This document shows positions 3,195-14,839 of a stretch of DNA of 64,000 nt, piece after piece. Origin of the DNA: an uncultured Clostridia bacterium (GTDB taxonomy: Bacteria; Bacillota; Clostridia; Christensenellales; UBA3700); assembly GCA_946615965.1 (NCBI GenBank), contig CAMOIC010000002.1, positions 860 through 64,859 of the forward strand, in the 5' to 3' direction. The notes under the pieces were generated by a model. It was not told where the DNA came from. It ran no database searches and saw only the letters and a program-made list of their open reading frames with translations. How positions within the stretch are numbered: position 1 is the first letter of the stretch; every line of letters starts with the position of its first letter. Position numbers and translations under genes: made by a program.

Positions 3195-3213
3195 AGAATG
3201 CACTATGCACTCT
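3195..3213 (-). terminator. Possible intrinsic terminator at the end of the nrdR-lipoprotein transcript
   Basis: Minus strand AGAGUGCA-UAG-UGCAUUCU forms 8 bp including one G.U, followed by UUUUUG. The hairpin overlaps the stop codon of the lipoprotein gene. Confidence 0.4.
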
Positions 3214-4231
3214 TTCTAACTCTTACAATTGGCAAAAATCCTTTGTATGTTTCTGTATCCCTAAAATCTTCAGATACCAGCGCTGTTGATGAGATATTTC
3301 CTTGTGTTGTTACAAAATAAACAGAGGCAGCATGTTCATTTCCATATGGGGATCTTAACCACCATTCACCATACCTTCTCTCTACTTTGTCTTTTGTTCT
3401 AATTGCAAATAATACACCTTTAGCAATTGCATAATCTGAAACTTCAGTTAATCTTTTATTTGTTGCTATATCTCCACTATCTACAAAGCCATATGTTGAT
3501 CTTGTAGCTTCGTTAACACTTAGTGAATAAATCTTATCTTCTGTATTTTTTTGAACAGATGTAAATGCATTATTATTGTTGTATTTTGTTTTATTATCTA
3601 CAGTTGTTACAACAATATCCTTTACTTGATTTGTATCAAAGGCTTTTTTATAGAAAGTATTAGCAAATTTTCTTAATGTTGAATATTCATAAGAATTAGC
3701 ATATACCCATTTATCTCCGCCGTTATATTTAACGCCTTCATCATCTTTATAGAAATATCTTTCTGTAGAATCTCCTGCAATATTTGCAATGTTTTGGAAA
3801 TTAGTAATATCTAAAATCTTATTTGACATACAAACAAATGCATTGTCTTCTTTTGAATAGATGATATTCCATATAATATCTTCAACAACAAATGCGTATT
3901 CTTGACCTGCAATAACAGAACTACCATTTGAGAATGTAGCATCCTCCACACTAGGTGTTGCTGTAATTATTGCATATGTTTTTCCATTATATTTGTAATA
4001 ACCTGTTGATTCATCATATTCTCCAGTTTTGATATCACTAAGTTCTACATTCTTAGCGATTGTTTGTGGATATGAACCAAAAGATATTTGTTTTGAAGTA
4101 ACAAAAGTATAAGATAAAGAATCTTTCTCTTCTTGTTTTGTATTATCATCTTTCTTACATGCAAACAAACATGTTGAACAAATAATAGATAAAATTATTA
4201 CAACTGAAAATATTTTTATAAACTTTTTCAT
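3203..4231 (-). CDS. Putative lipoprotein, DUF6273-like
   Basis: Signal peptide plus lipobox: MKKFIKIFSVVIILSIICSTCLFA-CKKDD. Shows FGSYPQT and C-terminal YGEWWLRSP motifs that I recall from a family of gut-Firmicute extracellular proteins. The start overlaps the nrdR stop. Confidence 0.55.
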   Translation of the reverse strand: MKKFIKIFSVVIILSIICSTCLFACKKDDNTKQEEKDSLSYTFVTSKQISFGSYPQTIAKNVELSDIKTGEYDESTGYYKYNGKTYAIITATPSVEDATFSNGSSVIAGQEYAFVVEDIIWNIIYSKEDNAFVCMSNKILDITNFQNIANIAGDSTERYFYKDDEGVKYNGGDKWVYANSYEYSTLRKFANTFYKKAFDTNQVKDIVVTTVDNKTKYNNNNAFTSVQKNTEDKIYSLSVNEATRSTYGFVDSGDIATNKRLTEVSDYAIAKGVLFAIRTKDKVERRYGEWWLRSPYGNEHAASVYFVTTQGNISSTALVSEDFRDTETYKGFLPIVRVRKSA

Positions 4232-6891: not shown

Positions 6892-8328
6892 CTACTCCTT
6901 ACATTTAAACTCTTGCATTGGTTTTTTCTTGAATTCTATATCCATTAAACCAAGTTGAGTTTTAATTATTTTTCTCATTTCTACTGCAGGCTGTAAGCAA
7001 TATTTCTTAAATAATTCCTTATCTACCTTATCTACATTATCCCAGCATGGGAATAATAATTTAACGAATGCAGTTGTTATTCTCTTTACCGCTTTTGTAT
7101 CTCTTGTATCTGCATCATTTGGCACAACTACAAGTTCATCAACAATTGCTTTTTCTATTACATCTTCTCTAAGAGCATGCATTATTTCTGAGAAATATTC
7201 AGTATTCAATGCCCATCCATTTACTTTCATATTCTCATTCATTCTAGGTACATCCCATCCTTTAATAAATCCGTGGAATCTATCTATTAATGCAGAATCT
7301 TCAAATAACGATGGCAACTCTTCTAGCATGTTAACATTTGTGTCCATCTTTTCTTGTCTTATATTTCCAAGAACGATTACTCCGGCTTTTCCTGCACCTG
7401 ATTTTAGTCCGACATTAAACGTTCCTGATTCAAGATATCCCTTCATTGCACCACGCATTTCATCAATGTCTGGAAACTTAATTGTAGATATCTCATCAAG
7501 TGCTACGTAGTCATAATATGAAACAAGTCCTTCTTGATGCTTATTCATATCATAGAACATTTTTGCTCTTGTCATTACACCGCCAGATACAAGCCATCCT
7601 TTCTTACTAATTTGAGAAAAGATATAACTCTTTCCAGTTCCTTTAGGTGCTAGTTCCATAAGGTTCAATCTTTCTTCAACAAATGGAAGCAATCTTGTAA
7701 GCATTGTTAACTTTTCAAGTTCTGTTTTAAATCCAGCTGCATTGTAATCAATAGCACCTAAGATTACATCTATCCATTCATCAATAGTAAATTGCTCTCT
7801 TGCCTTCTTAAAGAATTCTAGATCTATCTTATATGGTCTAAAATCTTTAAACCCAACAAGAACAATCTTTCCTTCTTGTTTCTTACCTTTAGTTATATTT
7901 TGATATTCTAAATCTAGAATTCCCCAAAACTCGCCATCAGATACAAGGAGTTCTTTTTTATATTTTGTCCAAACACTTTGTGGTATATGTGTTTGTTGGT
8001 ATGTTATCCCAAAATCTGGAAGAGCGAATGTTACTTCAGATGTCTTAATATCTATATTTACTGAAAGCTTAGCTAAAAACCTTACTTTTTCGCCAGATAT
8101 TAATTTATCTAATATGGCATTCCACTCATCTTTACGAGGCATTACGTCTTTAATTTTTTCTAAAACAAAATTAACGTTAACATTTCCATCGGCATCTGCA
8201 TACTTTTTAATAAACCAGTCTCTTATAAAAGCTGGTAAATTAAGAGATGAAAATACACCCTGTAGTGATGACTTTTTAACTATCATCCCATCAAAGCTTT
8301 GTTTTAGCTTTAATTCCACATCGCTCAT
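6892..8328 (-). CDS. BrxL-like AAA+ protein (BREX Lon-like family N-terminal and ATPase regions, no Lon protease domain)
   Basis: 478 aa. Walker A LAPKGTGKSY, Walker B-like YVALDEIS. The blocks FTIDEWIDVILGAI, SALIDRFHGFIKGWDVP and the N-terminal FDGMIVKKSSL...LPAFIRDWF are collinear with BrxL as I remember it. The protein ends where the BrxL protease domain would begin. Confidence 0.65.
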   Translation of the reverse strand: MSDVELKLKQSFDGMIVKKSSLQGVFSSLNLPAFIRDWFIKKYADADGNVNVNFVLEKIKDVMPRKDEWNAILDKLISGEKVRFLAKLSVNIDIKTSEVTFALPDFGITYQQTHIPQSVWTKYKKELLVSDGEFWGILDLEYQNITKGKKQEGKIVLVGFKDFRPYKIDLEFFKKAREQFTIDEWIDVILGAIDYNAAGFKTELEKLTMLTRLLPFVEERLNLMELAPKGTGKSYIFSQISKKGWLVSGGVMTRAKMFYDMNKHQEGLVSYYDYVALDEISTIKFPDIDEMRGAMKGYLESGTFNVGLKSGAGKAGVIVLGNIRQEKMDTNVNMLEELPSLFEDSALIDRFHGFIKGWDVPRMNENMKVNGWALNTEYFSEIMHALREDVIEKAIVDELVVVPNDADTRDTKAVKRITTAFVKLLFPCWDNVDKVDKELFKKYCLQPAVEMRKIIKTQLGLMDIEFKKKPMQEFKCKE

Positions 8329-8340
8329 GTAGATTCTCCT

Positions 8341-9786
8341 TTATAGGCCTAAGTCGTCTTCTTCTAAGCCTTTATTAAATTTAATCTTTTTTCTAGCGAT
8401 TTCATTTTGTGATGAAATAATAACTTCGTACTCTCCTGGTTTTTCAATATTCAATGGTTCAGATACCCATGAATTGAATTTCTTAGAACATAGATAATTT
8501 GCCCCATTTACTTGCAAATATACTTTTTCTAGTTCCTTAGATACAGAAAACTCAACACTTGGCTTCTCCCCTGCCTTCATATTAATAACATCTTCAGCAA
8601 ATGTTACTTCTACAGTTTCATCTTCTTTTTCTTTCTTTACAGTTCCGCCAGTTCTTCCAGCATATTCTTCAAAAGCTTTTAAATCTTTTTGTTTTACTGT
8701 AGGTGGAACTTTAGATAATGCTTTAACAAAATCTTTCATAGTAATATCTGTTAAAACATCAGTCTTAATATAATTGTTTAGAGGATCTTCTTTTGCTCTA
8801 TCACAAACTTCTGCAATATCTGCACCAGAATAACCTTCTGTTACTTTAACAAGCTTCTTAATATCTACATCTTTTCCAAGAGGAACATTATTTAATTGTT
8901 TATTAAACATATATTCTCTTGCTGGAGCATCAGGCAAAGATACATAAATCTTTTCACTAAATCTTCCAGAACGAACAGCTGCACTATCTACATCCCAAGG
9001 TCTATTAGTAGCACCAAGTAATAATAGGTTATCTGTCTTTGATGCAAATCCATCGATTTGTTGTAAGAATTCATTTACACGCTTATCATTGTGCATATCT
9101 TGGCCACGTTGTCCAAATAAAGAATCCATTTCATCAATAAAAATGATAGCAAGCTTATCTTTTTTAGCAGCTTCAAATAATGAAGAAATATTCTTTTCAC
9201 TCTCACCTACATATTTAGATAAGATATCTGATCCTTTAATTGCATAGAATGTAGCACCAACTTCGCCAGCAATGGCTTTTGCTATTAAAGTCTTACCTGT
9301 TCCTGGAGGTCCATATAACAAGACACCACCACCCATTTTCTTACCATACTTGGCATATTTTTCTGGGTACTTAATAGGATTAATCATTCTAGTTAAGATT
9401 GTTTTCTTAACTTCTTCTAGTCCAGCAACATCAGAGAATTTGATATCTGGGATAGCAGAACCTTGCCAAATCTTGCCATTATCTTCATCTTGTTCTTGTT
9501 GTTGACCACCTTGAGAATTATCTCCAGTTCCTGGAACACGTCTAACAGCTGGACGTTTTCTATCTCCACATGCTTCTGCGTTTTCTTGATACATTTTAGC
9601 TTTTTTAATAAGCGATGCCTTTAATTGTTGTGAAGAATATTTACTTGTTTCTAATGCCTTTTGTGCAGCAAGCATATAATACTTCTTAGCAGCAGTATAG
9701 TTGCCAGCAGCCTGACATCTAATTGCATTATTGTAGTAAGTATCCATCATTTCTCTGTAGAAAGACACATCCTTAACTTCAGCCAT
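8341..9786 (-). CDS. Vps4-like AAA+ ATPase (MIT-like N-domain, linker, AAA core, extra C-terminal beta-rich domain)
   Basis: MIT-like three-helix N-terminus YYNNAIRCQAAGNYTAAKKYYMLAAQKALETSKY...KKAKMYQENAEAC. Walker A GPPGTGKT, pore loop KYVGESEK, Walker B IIFIDEMD, ATNRPWDVDSAAVRSGRF. About 100 aa of unrelated C-terminal sequence. Confidence 0.8.
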   Translation of the reverse strand: MAEVKDVSFYREMMDTYYNNAIRCQAAGNYTAAKKYYMLAAQKALETSKYSSQQLKASLIKKAKMYQENAEACGDRKRPAVRRVPGTGDNSQGGQQQEQDEDNGKIWQGSAIPDIKFSDVAGLEEVKKTILTRMINPIKYPEKYAKYGKKMGGGVLLYGPPGTGKTLIAKAIAGEVGATFYAIKGSDILSKYVGESEKNISSLFEAAKKDKLAIIFIDEMDSLFGQRGQDMHNDKRVNEFLQQIDGFASKTDNLLLLGATNRPWDVDSAAVRSGRFSEKIYVSLPDAPAREYMFNKQLNNVPLGKDVDIKKLVKVTEGYSGADIAEVCDRAKEDPLNNYIKTDVLTDITMKDFVKALSKVPPTVKQKDLKAFEEYAGRTGGTVKKEKEDETVEVTFAEDVINMKAGEKPSVEFSVSKELEKVYLQVNGANYLCSKKFNSWVSEPLNIEKPGEYEVIISSQNEIARKKIKFNKGLEEDDLGL

Positions 9787-9796
9787 TTATTACCCC

Positions 9797-10390
9797 TTAG
9801 TTGTTATTTGTTTCTTTAATCTTTTTGCTAATTTCATCTAATTGCTTATCAATATCATCATCACTAACTTCATCCATAGCTAGTTCTTGATCGATAAGAC
9901 TATTAATTTCGTCATCAGAAATGGCATTTGTATCACCTGTATGAGCATTGAACTCTCCTTCTGACATATCTAGATAAATATCCATTTGTTCAGTTTGAGT
10001 TTGAACACCTTCCATAGCGGCTTCAAATTGTTGTTGAACTTTAGCAAAGTCCTTAGAATTTGTTAACTTTGTCATTTCCTTAGATAAAAGACTTAAACCA
10101 CCTAAGAATTCATGAGTCATAACTGTCATATCTTTCATTTGAGAAGTGATTTCAAAGTTCAATAACATCTCTTGAGCTCTTTTTTGTTGAGCCATAGTCA
10201 TTTTTAAACCAGTAACAGCTAAATTATATTGGTTCATTAAACCAAGCTTTTTAGCACGCTTTGCTGCTGAGATATATACTTTCTTTTGATCTTCTAGTTT
10301 AGAAATTTGTTTATTCATTTGGTTAATAGTCTTTTTAACCAACATTTTCTTTTCTATTTCTTTCTCTTGTTTAGTTTTAAATAATCCCAT
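9797..10390 (-). CDS. ESCRT-III superfamily protein, Vps2/Vps24/CHMP3-like
   Basis: 197 aa. MGLFKTKQEKEIEKK N-terminus, then a basic helical hairpin (AAKRAKKLGLMNQYNLAVTGLKMTMAQQKRAQEM), then KDFAKVQQQFEAAMEGVQTQTEQMDIYLD, and an acidic C-terminus ending in an amphipathic DDDIDKQLDEISKKIKE helix. Confidence 0.65.
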   Translation of the reverse strand: MGLFKTKQEKEIEKKMLVKKTINQMNKQISKLEDQKKVYISAAKRAKKLGLMNQYNLAVTGLKMTMAQQKRAQEMLLNFEITSQMKDMTVMTHEFLGGLSLLSKEMTKLTNSKDFAKVQQQFEAAMEGVQTQTEQMDIYLDMSEGEFNAHTGDTNAISDDEINSLIDQELAMDEVSDDDIDKQLDEISKKIKETNNN

Positions 10391-11007
10391 TATTCGTCAG
10401 TCTCCTCAAATTCTTTTTCTATTAATCCTGCTTCACCGCTTTCTTCAACGGCAGCAATTGTTTCTTCTTGTTCTGCAGTATCTTGCTCTTCAAACATAGC
10501 AAGTAATTGATCATCATTCTTACCTGCACCGTAAATTGTTTCATTTAAATCATATTGCATTGCAACTTCATTAAATGTATCGTCAGATGTTGTTAATATA
10601 TCTTCTTCCTTAACTCTTAAATTCAATGCCTTATTTAAGTACTTAGCAAGTGCCTTTTGGTCACCTAATAACTTATTAATTGGAATTTTACCTGTATTTG
10701 CATAGAATTCCTTATCTTCCATAGCATCCTTTAACTTATTCATTAAGTTGATGTTATAGACAAGATACATACCTCTTTGTGCATCACGTTGTTTTTGAGC
10801 TTTTAGGTAATTAATCTTCTTTGCATATAAAAGTCTTATCTCTTGAGATTTCTCAGCTTTACCCTTCTTTAAAAGTTCTTCAATTTCAGCTGTCTTTTCT
10901 ACAATGCCATCTTCGATAGCTTCTTGTTCTTTCTCAAGTTTGATAATAGAATTTACAACTTCTTCTCTTTTTAATTTCTTAAATCTAAAATATGATAAGA
11001 ATCCCAC
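10390..11007 (-). CDS. ESCRT-III superfamily protein, Snf7/CHMP4-like
   Basis: 205 aa. MGFLSYFRFKK N-terminus, coiled-coil hairpin LLKKGKAEKSQEIRLLYAKKINYLKAQKQRDAQ, and a strongly acidic tail (EEQDTAEQEETIAAVEESGE...EFEETDE). The stop overlaps the start of the next gene. Confidence 0.55.
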   Translation of the reverse strand: MGFLSYFRFKKLKREEVVNSIIKLEKEQEAIEDGIVEKTAEIEELLKKGKAEKSQEIRLLYAKKINYLKAQKQRDAQRGMYLVYNINLMNKLKDAMEDKEFYANTGKIPINKLLGDQKALAKYLNKALNLRVKEEDILTTSDDTFNEVAMQYDLNETIYGAGKNDDQLLAMFEEQDTAEQEETIAAVEESGEAGLIEKEFEETDE

Positions 11008-11018
11008 AAATAGCCTCC

Positions 11019-11372
11019 TTATTCGTTCGCGCGTCTTTCAACAACTAATTGATTTAAATCTCTTAAATTGTGATTAAGCGCTAAATCACTTCTTAATTTT
11101 CCTCTAGACAAGATTAGCTTTAGAGAATCCAATTTATCTGATATCTCTTTATCTATTCTCTCTACTTCTTCTGAAACAACAGGATTTGAATATTTAATTT
11201 CGATATATAAATCCTTTAATTGTTGTTCAATAGAATGATTACTCTTTGCTAAAACAATTAGCATATTAATCTTTTCTGCATTTTTATCTAAAGTTTTCTT
11301 AACTTGCATAACTTTAGCAACATGTGCAGGAGAGATATCTATAATTTCTTTATCTTTAACAAATAATCCCAT
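11019..11372 (-). CDS. Small all-helical protein sharing the MGLF N-terminus (function unknown)
   Basis: 117 aa, MGLFVKDKEII..., heptad-like helical sequence. Start overlaps the stop of the SPFH gene (TAATG). No family recognised. Confidence 0.45.
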   Translation of the reverse strand: MGLFVKDKEIIDISPAHVAKVMQVKKTLDKNAEKINMLIVLAKSNHSIEQQLKDLYIEIKYSNPVVSEEVERIDKEISDKLDSLKLILSRGKLRSDLALNHNLRDLNQLVVERRANE

Positions 11373-12136
11373 TATTCTACCCTCGCTCCACAGTTATTAC
11401 AGAATTTACTTCCTGCGACAATTATATGGCCACATCTTGGACAAACATCTTGTTTTGTTCTTGCAGCTTTTGACTTATCCATATATCTATCTGAGATATT
11501 GACATTAGAAATTAAAAATGAAGAAATCTCTAATCCATATTCTCTATACAAAGCTTTATCTAAAGATTGTCTAATCTCATAAGACATAGCCATTTTATCT
11601 TCTGCGATTCTATCTAATGGCACTTCATTAACTGCCACATATTCAAGAATGCATGGTTCAATATATGATAAGATTTTACCCTTTAGTCTTTCTTTTAAAT
11701 CTTCTAAAGAAAATCTCTTATTAACACCAACAAGTTCTAAATAGAATTGTCTTGGATTCTTAACACGAAGTTCAATTTCTCCATTAGCACCCATTTTTGC
11801 AGGATTATCTGTGATTGGATCATGAATATCAAACAATGCAGGTGTTCCCCAAAGCACTTTAACTTTGGCTGTTTTTGATATATAGAAAAACTCAATTCTT
11901 GATGGGTCTTGCTTCTCTATTGAGAATGGAGAATTCTTATCTTGTAATTTATAAACGCCAGGTTTTATAGTTTCTAAAGCAATGCCATCTTTAAGAACAA
12001 TAGCAACATGAGTTTCGTCTATAATCACTTTTGAGTCCGAATTAATAGAAGAGATACTCTTTCTTATGAATAAATCATCATTAGAGATCTCACTTTTGTT
12101 TAAAAACACAACTTTTGAGTCTGTAGTTGTAGCCAA
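11372..12136 (-). CDS. SPFH/Band-7-like protein with C-terminal Zn-ribbon (YdjI / COG4260-like)
   Basis: 254 aa with a TTG start 7 nt after AGGAGG. Blocks THVAIVLKDGIA...PGVYKL, KVLWGTPALFDIHDP and GLEISSFLISNVNISD parallel B. subtilis YdjI as I recall it. C-terminal CPRCGH...CNNCG ribbon. Confidence 0.7.
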   Translation of the reverse strand: MATTTDSKVVFLNKSEISNDDLFIRKSISSINSDSKVIIDETHVAIVLKDGIALETIKPGVYKLQDKNSPFSIEKQDPSRIEFFYISKTAKVKVLWGTPALFDIHDPITDNPAKMGANGEIELRVKNPRQFYLELVGVNKRFSLEDLKERLKGKILSYIEPCILEYVAVNEVPLDRIAEDKMAMSYEIRQSLDKALYREYGLEISSFLISNVNISDRYMDKSKAARTKQDVCPRCGHIIVAGSKFCNNCGARVE

Positions 12137-12193: not shown

Positions 12194-12222
12194 ATTTTAT
12201 ATTAAATATTTAAGTCAGTCAA
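12194..12222 (-). promoter_or_regulatory. Sigma-A-type promoter of the seven-gene operon
   Basis: Minus strand TTGACT (12222-12217), 17 nt, TAAAAT (12199-12194), about 50 nt upstream of the TTG start. The -35 lies inside the perfect palindrome GTCAATATTGAC (12218-12229). Confidence 0.5.
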
Positions 12223-12360: not shown

Positions 12361-13686
12361 TTAGATGTTTCTGTTCATCATTCTTGAAAGCCAAGGAGCA
12401 GTCTTCTTACCTTGTGGGTTTGTTGTTGGCTGTGGTTGGCTTGGTTGAACAGTTTGTTGTACAGGTTGAACTGGTTGTTGTGGTTGTTGTTGGTTTTGTC
12501 CAAAAACTGAATCATAACTTACAGGTCTTGCTGTAAATCCAGGATATGCTTGATAACCACCTGGGATTGGTTGTCTATATTGAGGTTGTTGAGGTTGTTG
12601 CTCATAATCTTTATCTGCAGCTACCTCTGCACCTTCTGTACCAATAATGTGTTGAGATACATGGTAAGTACTTGCAAATGTAGAATTATCCATAATTGCA
12701 TGATCACCATATTGGTTCTTGTAGTTCTTGAATGGGCTTCTTTGTTGATTCTCTTCAAATCCAGTAGCAACAATAAGAACTTTAACCTTATCTCCGAAGC
12801 TTTCTTCAAATCCTGTACCAAAGATAATGTTTGCATCAGCAGATACACATCTTCTTACAAGTTGCGAAGCATCATTAGCTTCTTTTAATCCTAATGTGTT
12901 ACCACCAACGATATATAGTAATACGCCAGTAGCACCAGAAATATTTGTATCTAGTAAGTTGCTCATAATAGCAGTTTCAACAGCCTTTCTTGTTTTATCT
13001 TTACCTTCAGCTTCTCCAATTGCTAAGTGAGCCATTCCTTTTCCTTTCATAATTGTCTTTACATCAGCAAAGTCAAGATTCAACTTTGTAGATGTTGCAA
13101 TAAGGTCTGTTAAACCTCTAATTGCATCTCTAAGTACAGTATCAGCATGCTTAAATGCGCCCATAAAGCTTACATTGTCACCTAAAACCTTTAATAAGTT
13201 GTTATTAGGAATAACAATCATAGAATCTACGTTTTCTTTTAATTGAGCGATACCTGATTCTGCGTTCTTCATTCTTACAGCACCTTCAAATTCAAAAGGT
13301 TTTGTAACAACGGCAACTGTTAAAATGTTCTTTTCCTTAGCCATTTGAGCAATAACCGGAGCTGCACCAGTTCCAGTACCACCACCCATTCCGGCTGTGA
13401 TAAATAACATATCAACATCGTTTAAATAGTCTCTAATTTCATCTCTTGACTCTTCTGCTGCGCCTTTACCAACGTCTGGTCTAGCACCTGCACCAAGTCC
13501 CTTTGTTGTTGTTTTACCAATAGCAATCTTATGAGGTGCTTTAGAAACCTCTAATGCTTGGCCATCAGTATTAACTGCAACGAATTCTGCGCTGTCAACT
13601 CCAGCTTCGATCATTGAATCAACGGCGTTACAACCGCCACCGCCGACACCCATTACTAGGATTTTTGCTCTTTTGTTCTCTGACAT
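12361..13686 (-). CDS. ftsZ: Cell division protein FtsZ
   Basis: ILVMGVGGGGCNAV, GGGTGTGAAPV and a Q/P-rich linker, with C-terminal peptide APWLSRMMNRN. I prefer the ATG at 13686 behind AGGAGGG over the track start at 13737, which would overlap ftsA. Confidence 0.95.
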   Translation of the reverse strand: MSENKRAKILVMGVGGGGCNAVDSMIEAGVDSAEFVAVNTDGQALEVSKAPHKIAIGKTTTKGLGAGARPDVGKGAAEESRDEIRDYLNDVDMLFITAGMGGGTGTGAAPVIAQMAKEKNILTVAVVTKPFEFEGAVRMKNAESGIAQLKENVDSMIVIPNNNLLKVLGDNVSFMGAFKHADTVLRDAIRGLTDLIATSTKLNLDFADVKTIMKGKGMAHLAIGEAEGKDKTRKAVETAIMSNLLDTNISGATGVLLYIVGGNTLGLKEANDASQLVRRCVSADANIIFGTGFEESFGDKVKVLIVATGFEENQQRSPFKNYKNQYGDHAIMDNSTFASTYHVSQHIIGTEGAEVAADKDYEQQPQQPQYRQPIPGGYQAYPGFTARPVSYDSVFGQNQQQPQQPVQPVQQTVQPSQPQPTTNPQGKKTAPWLSRMMNRNI

Positions 13687-13702
13687 ATTATACCCTCCTA
13701 TG

Positions 13703-14839
13703 TTAGAACAACTTGTTCCATATGCTTTGATTTTCATTTATTTCATACGCTACATCAAGCAAAGCAATAAACGATGTATAGTATGGTTTATCAAATCCAT
13801 TAATTCCAGGAACTCTACCTTTAACTCTTCTCTTTAATTTCTTTTCAAGATACAATAAAGCTCCCTTTATACCAGAAATTCCACCGCCAGTTAAATATAT
13901 TGGTGTGGATTCAGAGACAACTCCGCTTTCTTGGTTAATTGATGTATTCACAAAGTCAACAATCTCATCTAATCTTTGCATAATTGAATTATTAATATCT
14001 GTTGCTTTGTATGTTTTTATTCTATTTTGCGAATTAACAGTGTATAAAGCTCCTTCTGCAAATACAAAATCAAGATTAATTGAGTTTTGTATAGCTAATG
14101 CTTCTTCAAATTCAACTCCAAGTTGCATAGATAAAGTATTAAAAATACTTCCAGTTCCAAGAGGAGCAGAATATTGAGCAATAATACCTTCGCCCTTTAC
14201 TAAAGCTAAAGATGTTGAACCAAATCCAATATCTAGGCTTAGTACACCATAATTTCTTGATTCTTCATCTATAAACTTTGTACTTACAACCCAAGAAGAA
14301 CATAAATACTTTGTATGCTCAATTCCTAGTTCACTAAGTATAAAGTCAAAATATTGCATAAATTGTTTTGAAACATACATGTAAGATATTGTGGCTCTAA
14401 TAGTTGTAGCTCTCTCACCGTATGGATCAATTGTTTCTTTTACTTCATCAAGAACATATCTAACAGCTGCAGAAGAAATTAATTCCCATTCTGGATCGTT
14501 ATTAACATCTCCTCTTTTATGAATTTCATCAATCATAGAAGAAGTTACAAGTTTTTCTCTTCCATAATTAACGAAATAACTCTTAGTCTCAATTTTTGAG
14601 AATTCTACAGGAACTGAAATATAAACGCACTTAGGCATCTTTTGAATGCCACTAGCTTTAATGCAATTATGTACGTCATCTTCAAGTCCATCTAAATTAC
14701 AAAATTCAGACTCATAATATCCTTGATAAGGTACACATGAGAAATTAGAAACTGAGATAACTCCAAGAGAATTTTTGGAGCCCGTAGCAAAAACTAGTTT
14801 GCCTGATCCGATATCTAAAACAGCAACTTCTTTACCCAT
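13703..14839 (-). CDS. ftsA: Cell division protein FtsA (divergent)
   Basis: Actin-fold motifs VLDIGSGK and LDIGFGSTS..., TGGG near the C-terminus, amphipathic end SIWNKLF. Located immediately upstream of ftsZ. Confidence 0.8.
   Translation of the reverse strand: MGKEVAVLDIGSGKLVFATGSKNSLGVISVSNFSCVPYQGYYESEFCNLDGLEDDVHNCIKASGIQKMPKCVYISVPVEFSKIETKSYFVNYGREKLVTSSMIDEIHKRGDVNNDPEWELISSAAVRYVLDEVKETIDPYGERATTIRATISYMYVSKQFMQYFDFILSELGIEHTKYLCSSWVVSTKFIDEESRNYGVLSLDIGFGSTSLALVKGEGIIAQYSAPLGTGSIFNTLSMQLGVEFEEALAIQNSINLDFVFAEGALYTVNSQNRIKTYKATDINNSIMQRLDEIVDFVNTSINQESGVVSESTPIYLTGGGISGIKGALLYLEKKLKRRVKGRVPGINGFDKPYYTSFIALLDVAYEINENQSIWNKLF

Follow-up and report, generated by a model that had tools for sequence, protein, structure and literature searches.

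A Vps4-like AAA+ ATPase encoded beside an Snf7-family gene in Clostridia: a probable bacterial ESCRT-III/Vps4-type module

Do bacteria possess a Vps4-like ATPase that acts together with ESCRT-III proteins? According to a 2025 review, such an ATPase appears to be absent in bacteria, and the regulation of bacterial ESCRT-III polymers was left open (PMC7619361). The question is raised again by a gene cassette of an uncultured Clostridia bacterium (assembly GCA_946615965.1), located in a 64,000-nucleotide stretch of contig CAMOIC010000002.1 (positions 860 to 64,859), hereafter called the window. A first-pass annotation, made from the sequence alone, had read one gene of this cassette as a Vps4-like ATPase encoded immediately downstream of two ESCRT-III-like genes. 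The reading as a Vps4-like ATPase is supported here with caveats, and we consider it probable that the cassette encodes a bacterial ESCRT-III/Vps4-type membrane-remodelling module.

Based on the open reading frame (ORF) listing and the translation of the window, the gene is a minus-strand ORF with ATG start (8341..9786) and encodes 481 amino acids (aa). All peptides quoted in the annotation were found in this translation. QAAGNYTAAKKYY...NAEAC corresponds to residues 25–73 and IKFSDVAGLEEVKK to residues 115–128, and the motifs LLYGPPGTGKT, SKYVGESEK, IIFIDEMDSL and GATNRPWDVDSA as well as the beta-rich tail EDETVEVTF...KKIKF are also contained. Pfam recognises the domains AAA (residues 155–283, 6.8e-42), AAA_lid_3 (306–353, 6.1e-11) and Vps4_C (347–376, 33.7 bits, threshold 21.3). 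Given the AAA and AAA_lid_3 scores and the large conserved family to which the protein belongs, the ORF and its motifs are not a product of chance.

The strongest evidence for an ESCRT-type reading is provided by gene order and partner genes. Thousands of relatives of the ATPase were obtained when 5.8 billion proteins were searched by word index, and the best 120 of them were examined. They form one family with three architectures: proteins of about 480–530 aa with a C-terminal domain, which is the type found in the window, proteins of about 370–390 aa without this domain, and proteins of about 700–760 aa with a second AAA cassette. When one genome per GTDB species was scanned, relatives were detected in 346 species genomes, and the best 80 were all Clostridia. 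Taxa among the best matches are Christensenellales, Christensenellaceae, Catabacter, Candidatus Coproplasma, Caccovivens and gut metagenome-assembled genomes.

For 85 loci (the window and 84 others, a few of them duplicates), mostly from Christensenellales-like Clostridia, ORFs were called and then searched with iterated hidden Markov models (HMMs) built from the window genes. The genes coding for an SPFH protein, a helical protein of 117 aa (S117), two further proteins (E3a and E3b) and the AAA ATPase were each found in 80–85 of the loci. Their order was invariant where they were present, and the whole order was seen in about 80 of the 85 loci. The ATPase gene lies directly downstream of the Snf7-family gene, that of E3b, in an equal share of loci. 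The proposed resemblance to the archaeal CdvB-CdvC arrangement is confirmed. In the window, neighbouring cassette genes either overlap by one base or have 9–12 bases between them.

E3b is connected to the Snf7 family through its orthologues. Two of them (loci L010 and L001) obtained 34.0 and 28.2 bits with Pfam Snf7 (PF03357), which is above the gathering threshold of 27.3, and orthologues align with residues 18–145 to model positions 6–135 of 171. Among 13 diverse members of the E3b family, five matched Snf7, two above and three below the threshold. The E3b protein of the window is 45–62% identical to the Snf7-matching orthologues and is encoded in the same operon slot. Its N-terminus reads MGLFK, and the C-terminus is formed by a conserved helix (IDK-E/Q-L-E/D-E-L/I-x-KKI or IDKE-L/M-EEL-R/K-KKI) that follows an acidic stretch. 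Judged by its sequence, this helix resembles the MIT-interacting motif (MIM) MIM1, with the hydrophobic spacing off by one residue, and is regarded as a candidate MIM. Comparison of the E3b profile with PDB sequences yielded nothing significant.

Of the two upstream genes annotated as ESCRT-III-like, the proximal one, E3b, is thus tied to Snf7 by the sequences of its orthologues, while the distal one, E3a, is not. The AlphaFold2 model of E3a shows a hairpin (residues 14–51/55–105) followed by helices 117–151 and 165–190, with a mean predicted local distance difference test (pLDDT) value of 68. Every Foldseek match of this model had an E value of at least 0.3, and about 16 of the top 50 were Vipp1, PspA, CHMP2A/3, CHMP1B or Asgard ESCRT-IIIB. 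Comparison of E3a with E3b by hhalign gave a probability of 2–5% and hence no detectable kinship; none was detectable by hhalign between S117 and E3b either.

The ATPase's N-terminal domain is accepted as MIT-like at the level of profile and predicted secondary structure. The AlphaFold2 model, calculated from an alignment of 76 sequences, features helices at residues 7–26, 30–48 and 53–75 with pLDDT values >90. A profile of 33 diverse N-termini of the family was compared with all PDB sequences and gave 23 matches at E ≤1, of which about 11 were MIT domains. The best match was the MIT domain of an oomycete chitin synthase (8.2e-6, aligned over its full length). Calpain-7 MIT was found at 1.6e-3 and Sulfolobus Vps4 MIT (2w2u, 2v6y) at 5.5e-3 to 0.05, and the MIT domains of SKD1, VPS4B and VPS4A gave weaker values of 0.04–0.7. 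Pfam MIT was recognised in 8 of the 33 family members (best 9.2e-7), and precomputed PF04212 matches exist for several homologues that are 60–78% identical to the window ATPase. Near-invariant positions of the domain are mostly alanines distributed over the three helices (A21, A33, A40, A41, A48, A63 and A70), which is in line with the alanine-rich packing known from MIT domains. Both the profile comparison with solved MIT domains and the model bear out the MIT-like three-helix domain that had been annotated, as opposed to an anonymous TPR. The linker annotated behind this domain is present as well and predicted to be disordered (Table 1).

In the AAA core, the landmarks Walker A (residues 159–166), pore loop 1 (K191-Y-V-G194), Walker B (D218/E219), sensor-1 (N261) and R272/R275 were located. 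Walker A from G159 to T166, D218/E219, N261 and R272/G274/R275 are invariant in the 76-sequence alignment. Since the catalytic residues are invariant across these sequences, the ATPase should be active, and the intact Walker A, Walker B and arginine residues listed in the annotation are confirmed. In the AlphaFold2 model, helices 350–359 and 366–375 close the cassette, and the beta-domain insert is absent from the lid region, as in crenarchaeal Vps4 (PMC4686814).

With respect to relatedness, sequence comparison indicates that the AAA core is intermediate between Cdc48 D2 and Vps4. The NCBIfam HMMs gave 208 bits (CdvC), 233.9 bits (CDC48), 218.4 bits (FtsH) and 201.5 bits (PAN) for the window ATPase. 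The CdvC and CDC48 values were 219.8 and 222.3 for the short family member P0070, 223.5 and 227.8 for the short member P0116, 244.1 and 237.9 for yeast Vps4, and 243.9 and 199.2 for spastin. The CdvC model aligns end to end, with residues 10–376 of the window protein on model positions 7–365 of 370 and residues 5–373 of a short family member on positions 4–364. Its equivalog cut-off of 650 bits is reached neither by the window protein (208) and its family (209–224) nor by yeast Vps4 and spastin (only 244). This cut-off is specific to Crenarchaeota and was discarded as a membership test, being uninformative when yeast Vps4 fails it too. Among PDB sequences, the top single-cassette chain for the core alone (residues 112–376) was yeast Vps4 (2rko, 200.9 bits), and the window ATPase obtained 195.8 bits with D2 and 163.6 bits with D1 of Arabidopsis CDC48A. 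The family has in common with Vps4/katanin the motifs N-x-P-W and K-I-Y-V/I-x-L-P as well as one inserted residue ahead of sensor-1.

Neighbour-joining trees (Kimura distances, 240–271 columns, 100–200 bootstraps) were calculated for the family, yeast Vps4, human spastin and katanin, the separately entered D1 and D2 domains of six genuine Cdc48 proteins, and E. coli FtsH. The yeast Vps4 reference was checked against the PDB (437 of 437 residues match 5uie), as were the spastin and katanin references (2.13–2.16 bits per residue). A search with the AAA core against 1.84 billion representative proteins gave no single-domain outgroup, as the ranking by summed score favoured multi-AAA proteins; it was the source of the genuine Cdc48 controls. 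These carry CDC48_N, CDC48_2 and two AAA cassettes, in contrast to the window ATPase with one cassette and a MIT-like N-domain.

In these trees, the family was monophyletic with 100% bootstrap support and Vps4, spastin and katanin (the meiotic clade) with 93–97%. The family grouped with the meiotic clade at 73–87%, with Cdc48 D2 at 0–3% and with Vps4 alone at 0%, the latter scored in one tree of 258 columns. A clustering with Cdc48 D2, D1 or FtsH, which would have contradicted the annotation, was not obtained. As far as distance trees of these sequences can tell, this favours a position of the family beside the meiotic clade and outside Vps4 proper.

Several observations weigh against the ESCRT-type reading. 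At the level of sequence models, the window ATPase itself stays below the threshold of Pfam MIT, the E3b protein of the window has no Pfam Snf7 match, and E3a has no match in Pfam or among PDB sequences and is possibly ESCRT-III-like, with no significant similarity in sequence or fold. The CDC48 HMM is the top NCBIfam match of the ATPase, slightly above CdvC. Foldseek with the full ATPase model listed p97/Cdc48 chains for all of its top 50 matches (27–37% identity overall). The best-fitting region is Cdc48 D2; for the isolated D2, the target-normalised template modelling (TM) score is about 0.85, with a root-mean-square deviation of about 3 Å and 35–36% identity. On average, the AAA core shares 38.6% identity with the meiotic clade and 38.5% with Cdc48 D2, and the grouping with the meiotic clade could be due to long-branch attraction because both branches are long.

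The arginine fingers deviate in the same direction. The sequence R272-S-G-R275 is invariant in the family and has the spacing of Cdc48/FtsH, whereas Vps4, katanin and spastin have RR--RF/L; in MsVps4 the fingers are the adjacent Arg259/Arg260 (PMC4686814). The two-residue deletion that leads to adjacent R-R fingers in the meiotic clade is missing from the family, and the arginines are intact without being spaced as in Vps4. Vps4_C, found by Pfam in 32 of 39 family members, was rejected as a clade marker. Genuine CDC48_N-bearing Cdc48 proteins (P0286 and P0317) also exceed the gathering threshold of PF09336 with 34.9 and 28.2 bits, so a match alone is no sign of Vps4 kinship and the domain is a necessary but unspecific feature. 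The pore loop SK[WY]xGESEK was set aside as a Vps4 marker as well, since two genuine Cdc48 D2 domains carry the same motif. All motifs quoted in support of a core that "tracks Vps4 closely" are present, but this closeness was overstated in view of the identity values.

The ATPase might accordingly be a generic unfoldase derived from Cdc48 D2, with a TPR-like helical N-domain and other substrates, for instance to supply a protease or the adjacent BrxL ring; its position beside helical proteins would then be without any ESCRT meaning. Such an origin would explain the Foldseek ranking with D2 as the best fit, the top match to the CDC48 HMM, the R-S-G-R spacing, and the Vps4_C and pore-loop motifs in common with Cdc48 D2. 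The likeness to the D2 domains of Cdc48, p97 and VAT extends to 35–37% identity, a TM score of about 0.85, R-x-G-R fingers, the C-terminal helix (Vps4_C) and, in some members, the pore loop. However, the N-domain profile preferentially finds MIT domains, the gene is fixed beside an Snf7-family gene in about 80 loci, and tree support for a grouping with Cdc48 D2 is 0–3%. The protein also has a single cassette, neither CDC48_N nor a double-psi barrel, and other partners than Cdc48, p97 and VAT. We regard a generic unfoldase as highly unlikely and retain the ESCRT-III/Vps4-type module as the preferred reading. The coordinates of its parts and of the neighbouring features are given in Table 1.

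Table 1 Features of the Clostridia cassette, numbered by position in the window
Feature	Position	Strand	Basis
Vps4-like AAA+ ATPase, 481 aa (MIT-like domain, linker, AAA core, DUF7862)	8341..9786	minus	Pfam AAA, AAA_lid_3, Vps4_C; AlphaFold2 mean pLDDT 86
MIT-like three-helix bundle, residues 7-75	9562..9768	minus	AlphaFold2 helices; family profile vs PDB; Pfam MIT on relatives; CdvC model aligns from residue 10
Linker rich in Gly, Gln and acidic residues (76-111), predicted to be disordered	9454..9561	minus	pLDDT 40-44 over 79-101; variable in length and sequence among family members
Classical AAA cassette, residues 112-376, with four-helix lid and C-terminal helix 366-375	8659..9453	minus	Alignment, AlphaFold2, PDB scores
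C-terminal beta-rich domain (Pfam DUF7862), residues 390-472, eight predicted strands	8371..8619	minus	Pfam on family; pLDDT about 95
Acidic C-terminal tail FNKGLEEDDLGL, consensus KG-x-x-E-N/D-D-x-G-x	8344..8370	minus	Conserved in nearly all DUF7862-bearing members; disordered in model
E3b, Snf7-family ESCRT-III homologue, 197 aa	9797..10390	minus	Orthologues above Pfam Snf7 threshold; C-terminal conservation
E3a, helical, 205 aa, conserved motif IYG-x3-DD-x-LLAMFE	10390..11007	minus	AlphaFold2 mean pLDDT 68
S117, helical, 117 aa	11019..11372	minus	Present in 80/85 loci; alignment; no family match
SPFH (Band_7_1) protein with C-terminal zinc ribbon, first cassette gene	11372..12136	minus	Pfam Band_7_1 1.6e-19, Zn_Ribbon_1 3e-7; 80/85 loci
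Short BrxL-type ATPase, 478 aa, no Lon domain	6892..8328	minus	TIGR02688 434 bits (cut-off 329); PADLOC BrxL 668 bits
Zn-ribbon, TPR, TIR_2 protein, 729 aa	4693..6882	minus	Pfam TIR_2 1.5e-9
Promoter-like site TTGACT, 17 nt, TAAAAT in the ftsZ-SPFH gap	12194..12222	minus	Best minus-strand consensus match, 10/12; consensus match alone

The genes covered by the annotation are part of a larger system to which the SPFH protein, the small helical protein S117, BrxL and the TIR protein also belong. The extra C-terminal beta-rich domain of the ATPase, for which eight strands are predicted, corresponds to the tail for which the annotation had suggested an Ig-like fold, and is already a Pfam entry (DUF7862). 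Pfam recognises it in 20 of 35 family members, with a best value of 1.6e-7 and a value of 1e-3 for the window copy, and a comparison by sequence with solved structures gave no PDB match. In the AlphaFold2 model, a disordered linker joins the domain to the ATPase core. The acidic tail, KGLEEDDLGL in the window, follows straight after DUF7862.

The gene directly after that of the ATPase codes for a short BrxL without Lon domain. DUF7862 and BrxL were both present in 21 loci and both missing in 59, DUF7862 alone was found in 3 and BrxL alone in none; the three loci with DUF7862 only all lie within 1.3–3.4 kb of a contig border. As BrxL occurs only with DUF7862-bearing ATPases, the co-occurrence argues that the domain and the tail connect the ATPase to BrxL. 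The acidic tail is a candidate docking peptide, with BrxL as candidate partner. Pfam DUF7862 thereby gains its first genomic context. The 478-aa neighbour matches short BrxL models of BREX systems over its full length. Unlike in BREX, however, it is tied to DUF7862-bearing Vps4-like ATPases, and no other BREX gene (PglX, PglZ, BrxA, BrxB, BrxC) was found near the window cassette, where BrxL is flanked by the Vps4-like ATPase and the TIR protein, with nrdR next in line.

BrxL and a TIR-domain protein, which accompanies the cassette in 78 loci, bring a role in defence into consideration. The cassette could be an anti-phage or abortive-infection system. The TIR/TPR protein and BrxL would then be sensors of infection or effectors, the Snf7-like proteins would seal or permeabilise the membrane, and the AAA ATPase would serve to arm, reset or restrain them. 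An immune role would fit the constant TIR partner and the link to BrxL, which is otherwise known from BREX, and these two partners point towards immunity over housekeeping membrane work; this, too, counts against the preferred reading. The glutamate at the catalytic position of the TIR domain is kept in the window copy (SHWLQNEW), the cassette is found in differing genomic neighbourhoods across genomes, and accessory genes are exchanged modularly between subtypes.

On the other hand, this glutamate is kept in only about half of all TIR copies, and no further BREX gene is located nearby. Among the cassette genes, PADLOC found a model match for BrxL only. It had none for the SPFH, S117, E3a, E3b and TIR genes and gave generic AAA matches (IetA, TRIP13) for the ATPase. 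Flanking genes such as ftsZ, nrdR, dapB and glyS are of the housekeeping type. The GC content is even at 30–34%, and the GC profile gives no hint of a recent transfer. Conservation of the core order over hundreds of species genomes from one clade, with no GC anomaly, suggests more vertical inheritance than is usual for defence islands. The distribution of the cassette is clade-wide and apparently vertical. We consider a defence system possible but somewhat unlikely; it would alter the biological role and leave the molecular mechanism of the ATPase unchanged. By analogy with SPFH proteins and PspA, and given the distribution described, a role in vesiculation or envelope repair, similar to that of PspA-YdjGHI, would be rather more likely than phage defence. 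The C-terminal half of the window TIR protein contains repeated ~45-aa 'Y..L....YV' motifs, and its end reads KKKKKFWLWS.

For the preferred ESCRT-III/Vps4-type module, we infer the following mode of action. The ATPase would be a single-ring AAA+ unfoldase of CdvC/Vps4-like build that serves as the ATP-driven disassembly or remodelling enzyme. The SPFH-zinc ribbon protein and S117 may mark or scaffold a membrane patch, at which E3b, probably with E3a, would polymerise via its N-terminal MGLF motif and helical hairpin. The MIT domain would capture the acidic/basic helix that E3b exposes at its C-terminus, and possibly E3a by its DD-x-LLAMFE motif as well. Subunits threaded through the K-W/Y-V-G pore loop of the hexamer would lead to polymer turnover and to membrane remodelling or repair. 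The DUF7862 domain and the acidic tail may couple the ATPase to the adjacent short BrxL-type ATPase, and the TIR/TPR protein would be a further constant partner.

Compared to known systems, the archaeal CdvB-CdvC pair of Sulfolobales (MsVps4, PMC4686814) has the same ATPase build of MIT domain, linker, single AAA, lid and C-terminal helix without beta-domain, and an ATPase gene immediately downstream of one or more Snf7-family genes. The Clostridia cassette is distinguished from it by the bacterial host, by R-S-G-R in place of Arg259/Arg260 and by the extra DUF7862. It lacks CdvA or a winged-helix partner, features SPFH, TIR and BrxL proteins instead, and its candidate MIM is a helical acidic/basic motif. 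Among archaeal ESCRT systems, the Meth_adaptin type includes an SPFH protein that bears a coiled coil and a zinc ribbon (PMC10936438, Makarova et al. 2024). Compared by description, it also combines Vps4 and ESCRT-III with an SPFH-zinc ribbon protein and has Ig-like beta domains in the system. Its Ig-like (adaptin appendage) domains are separate proteins, whereas the beta domain described here is fused to the ATPase, and the window system has no ProX or GOLD partners.

Among bacteria, the SPFH protein YdjI of B. subtilis localises PspA at the membrane (PMC10936438). As in the PspA-YdjGHI envelope-stress operon, the genes for a Band_7_1-type SPFH protein and for small membrane or zinc-ribbon proteins accompany that of an ESCRT-III-superfamily protein. 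The filament protein of that system is, however, PspA and not of the Snf7 type, and it has no MIT-AAA ATPase, TIR or BrxL. The SPFH protein of the window belongs to the same Pfam family as YdjI. A survey of phage shock protein (PSP) systems described bacterial MIT/Vps4-like AAA+ genes, read as membrane-proximal, in whose loci a TPR+6TM gene replaces snf7, and unrelated double-AAA partners of PspA (PMC11237479). In contrast to those Vps4-like loci, the Clostridia cassette retains an Snf7-type gene.

A function in cell division is suggested by the genes ftsA (13703–14839) and ftsZ (12361–13737), which lie directly upstream of the operon on the same strand (minus), also on contigs with an identical protein. 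The module would then take part in cytokinesis or abscission, like Cdv in Sulfolobales. The flanks vary by genome, however, with ftsA-ftsZ/nrdR in the window and ftsK/LRR (leucine-rich repeat), dapB-lysA or mnmE/glyS elsewhere, so adjacency to ftsZ is not a conserved feature. The organism has a complete FtsA/FtsZ pair, and FtsZ directs division in prokaryotes having both systems (PMC7619361). The chance of a division role is therefore slim.

Taken in its widest form, the preferred reading would mean that Christensenellales-like gut Clostridia have a native ESCRT-III/Vps4 machine, the ATPase of which branches beside archaeal-eukaryotic Vps4/katanin/spastin and keeps ancestral Cdc48-type fingers. 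We put this forward tentatively and think it rather unlikely to hold as a whole. If it did, one of two options would be that bacterial immunity has a membrane-remodelling arm.

Full-text literature searches returned no description of the Clostridia cassette or of DUF7862. The cassette follows the known ESCRT-III/Vps4 logic in a domain where it was thought to be missing, with new fused and linked parts. A MIT-AAA ATPase beside an Snf7-family gene in a conserved bacterial operon is a concrete counter-example to the presumed absence, and its best matches stem from an abundant gut clade. With this cassette, ATP-driven ESCRT-III turnover in bacteria, the split between Vps4 and Cdc48, the role of SPFH proteins in ESCRT-type systems and the coupling of TIR and BrxL to membrane remodelling become testable.

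Further observations concern the small proteins and the cassette subtypes. In the window, S117, E3a and E3b all start with MG(L/F)F or MWPF, which may be a common N-terminal membrane-binding motif. In many loci, the S117 orthologue has a membrane helix at its N-terminus; there, a true transmembrane helix stands in place of the MG(L/F)F/MWPF start. Type B loci (L034–L084), which code for the short ATPase of 370–390 aa, have an additional gene for a TPR protein of 119 aa located between those of S117 and E3a (8390–8749 in L042) and a gene for a TPR protein of ~1250 aa after the ATPase (11130–14957 in L042). ABC transporter genes further downstream in type B loci appeared as 'AAA' matches in the locus scan and were dismissed as false. 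In the 700–760-aa subtype (loci L004 and L025; P0003–P0007 and P0012), the MIT domain is followed by two AAA cassettes, the TIR/TPR gene precedes the ATPase gene, and BrxL is missing.

The sole minus-strand terminator-like site is located at 3226–3182, and none was found inside the cassette. A gene for a DUF6273 lipoprotein-like protein (3203–4231, minus) lies on the same strand 3' of nrdR, and the terminator-like hairpin then follows; this gene may be co-transcribed with the cassette. Upstream, with its first ATG taken as the start, the ftsZ ORF has 35 bases in common with the end of ftsA. The FtsZ protein of the window carries a Gln/Pro-rich extension of ~120 aa beyond its conserved core.

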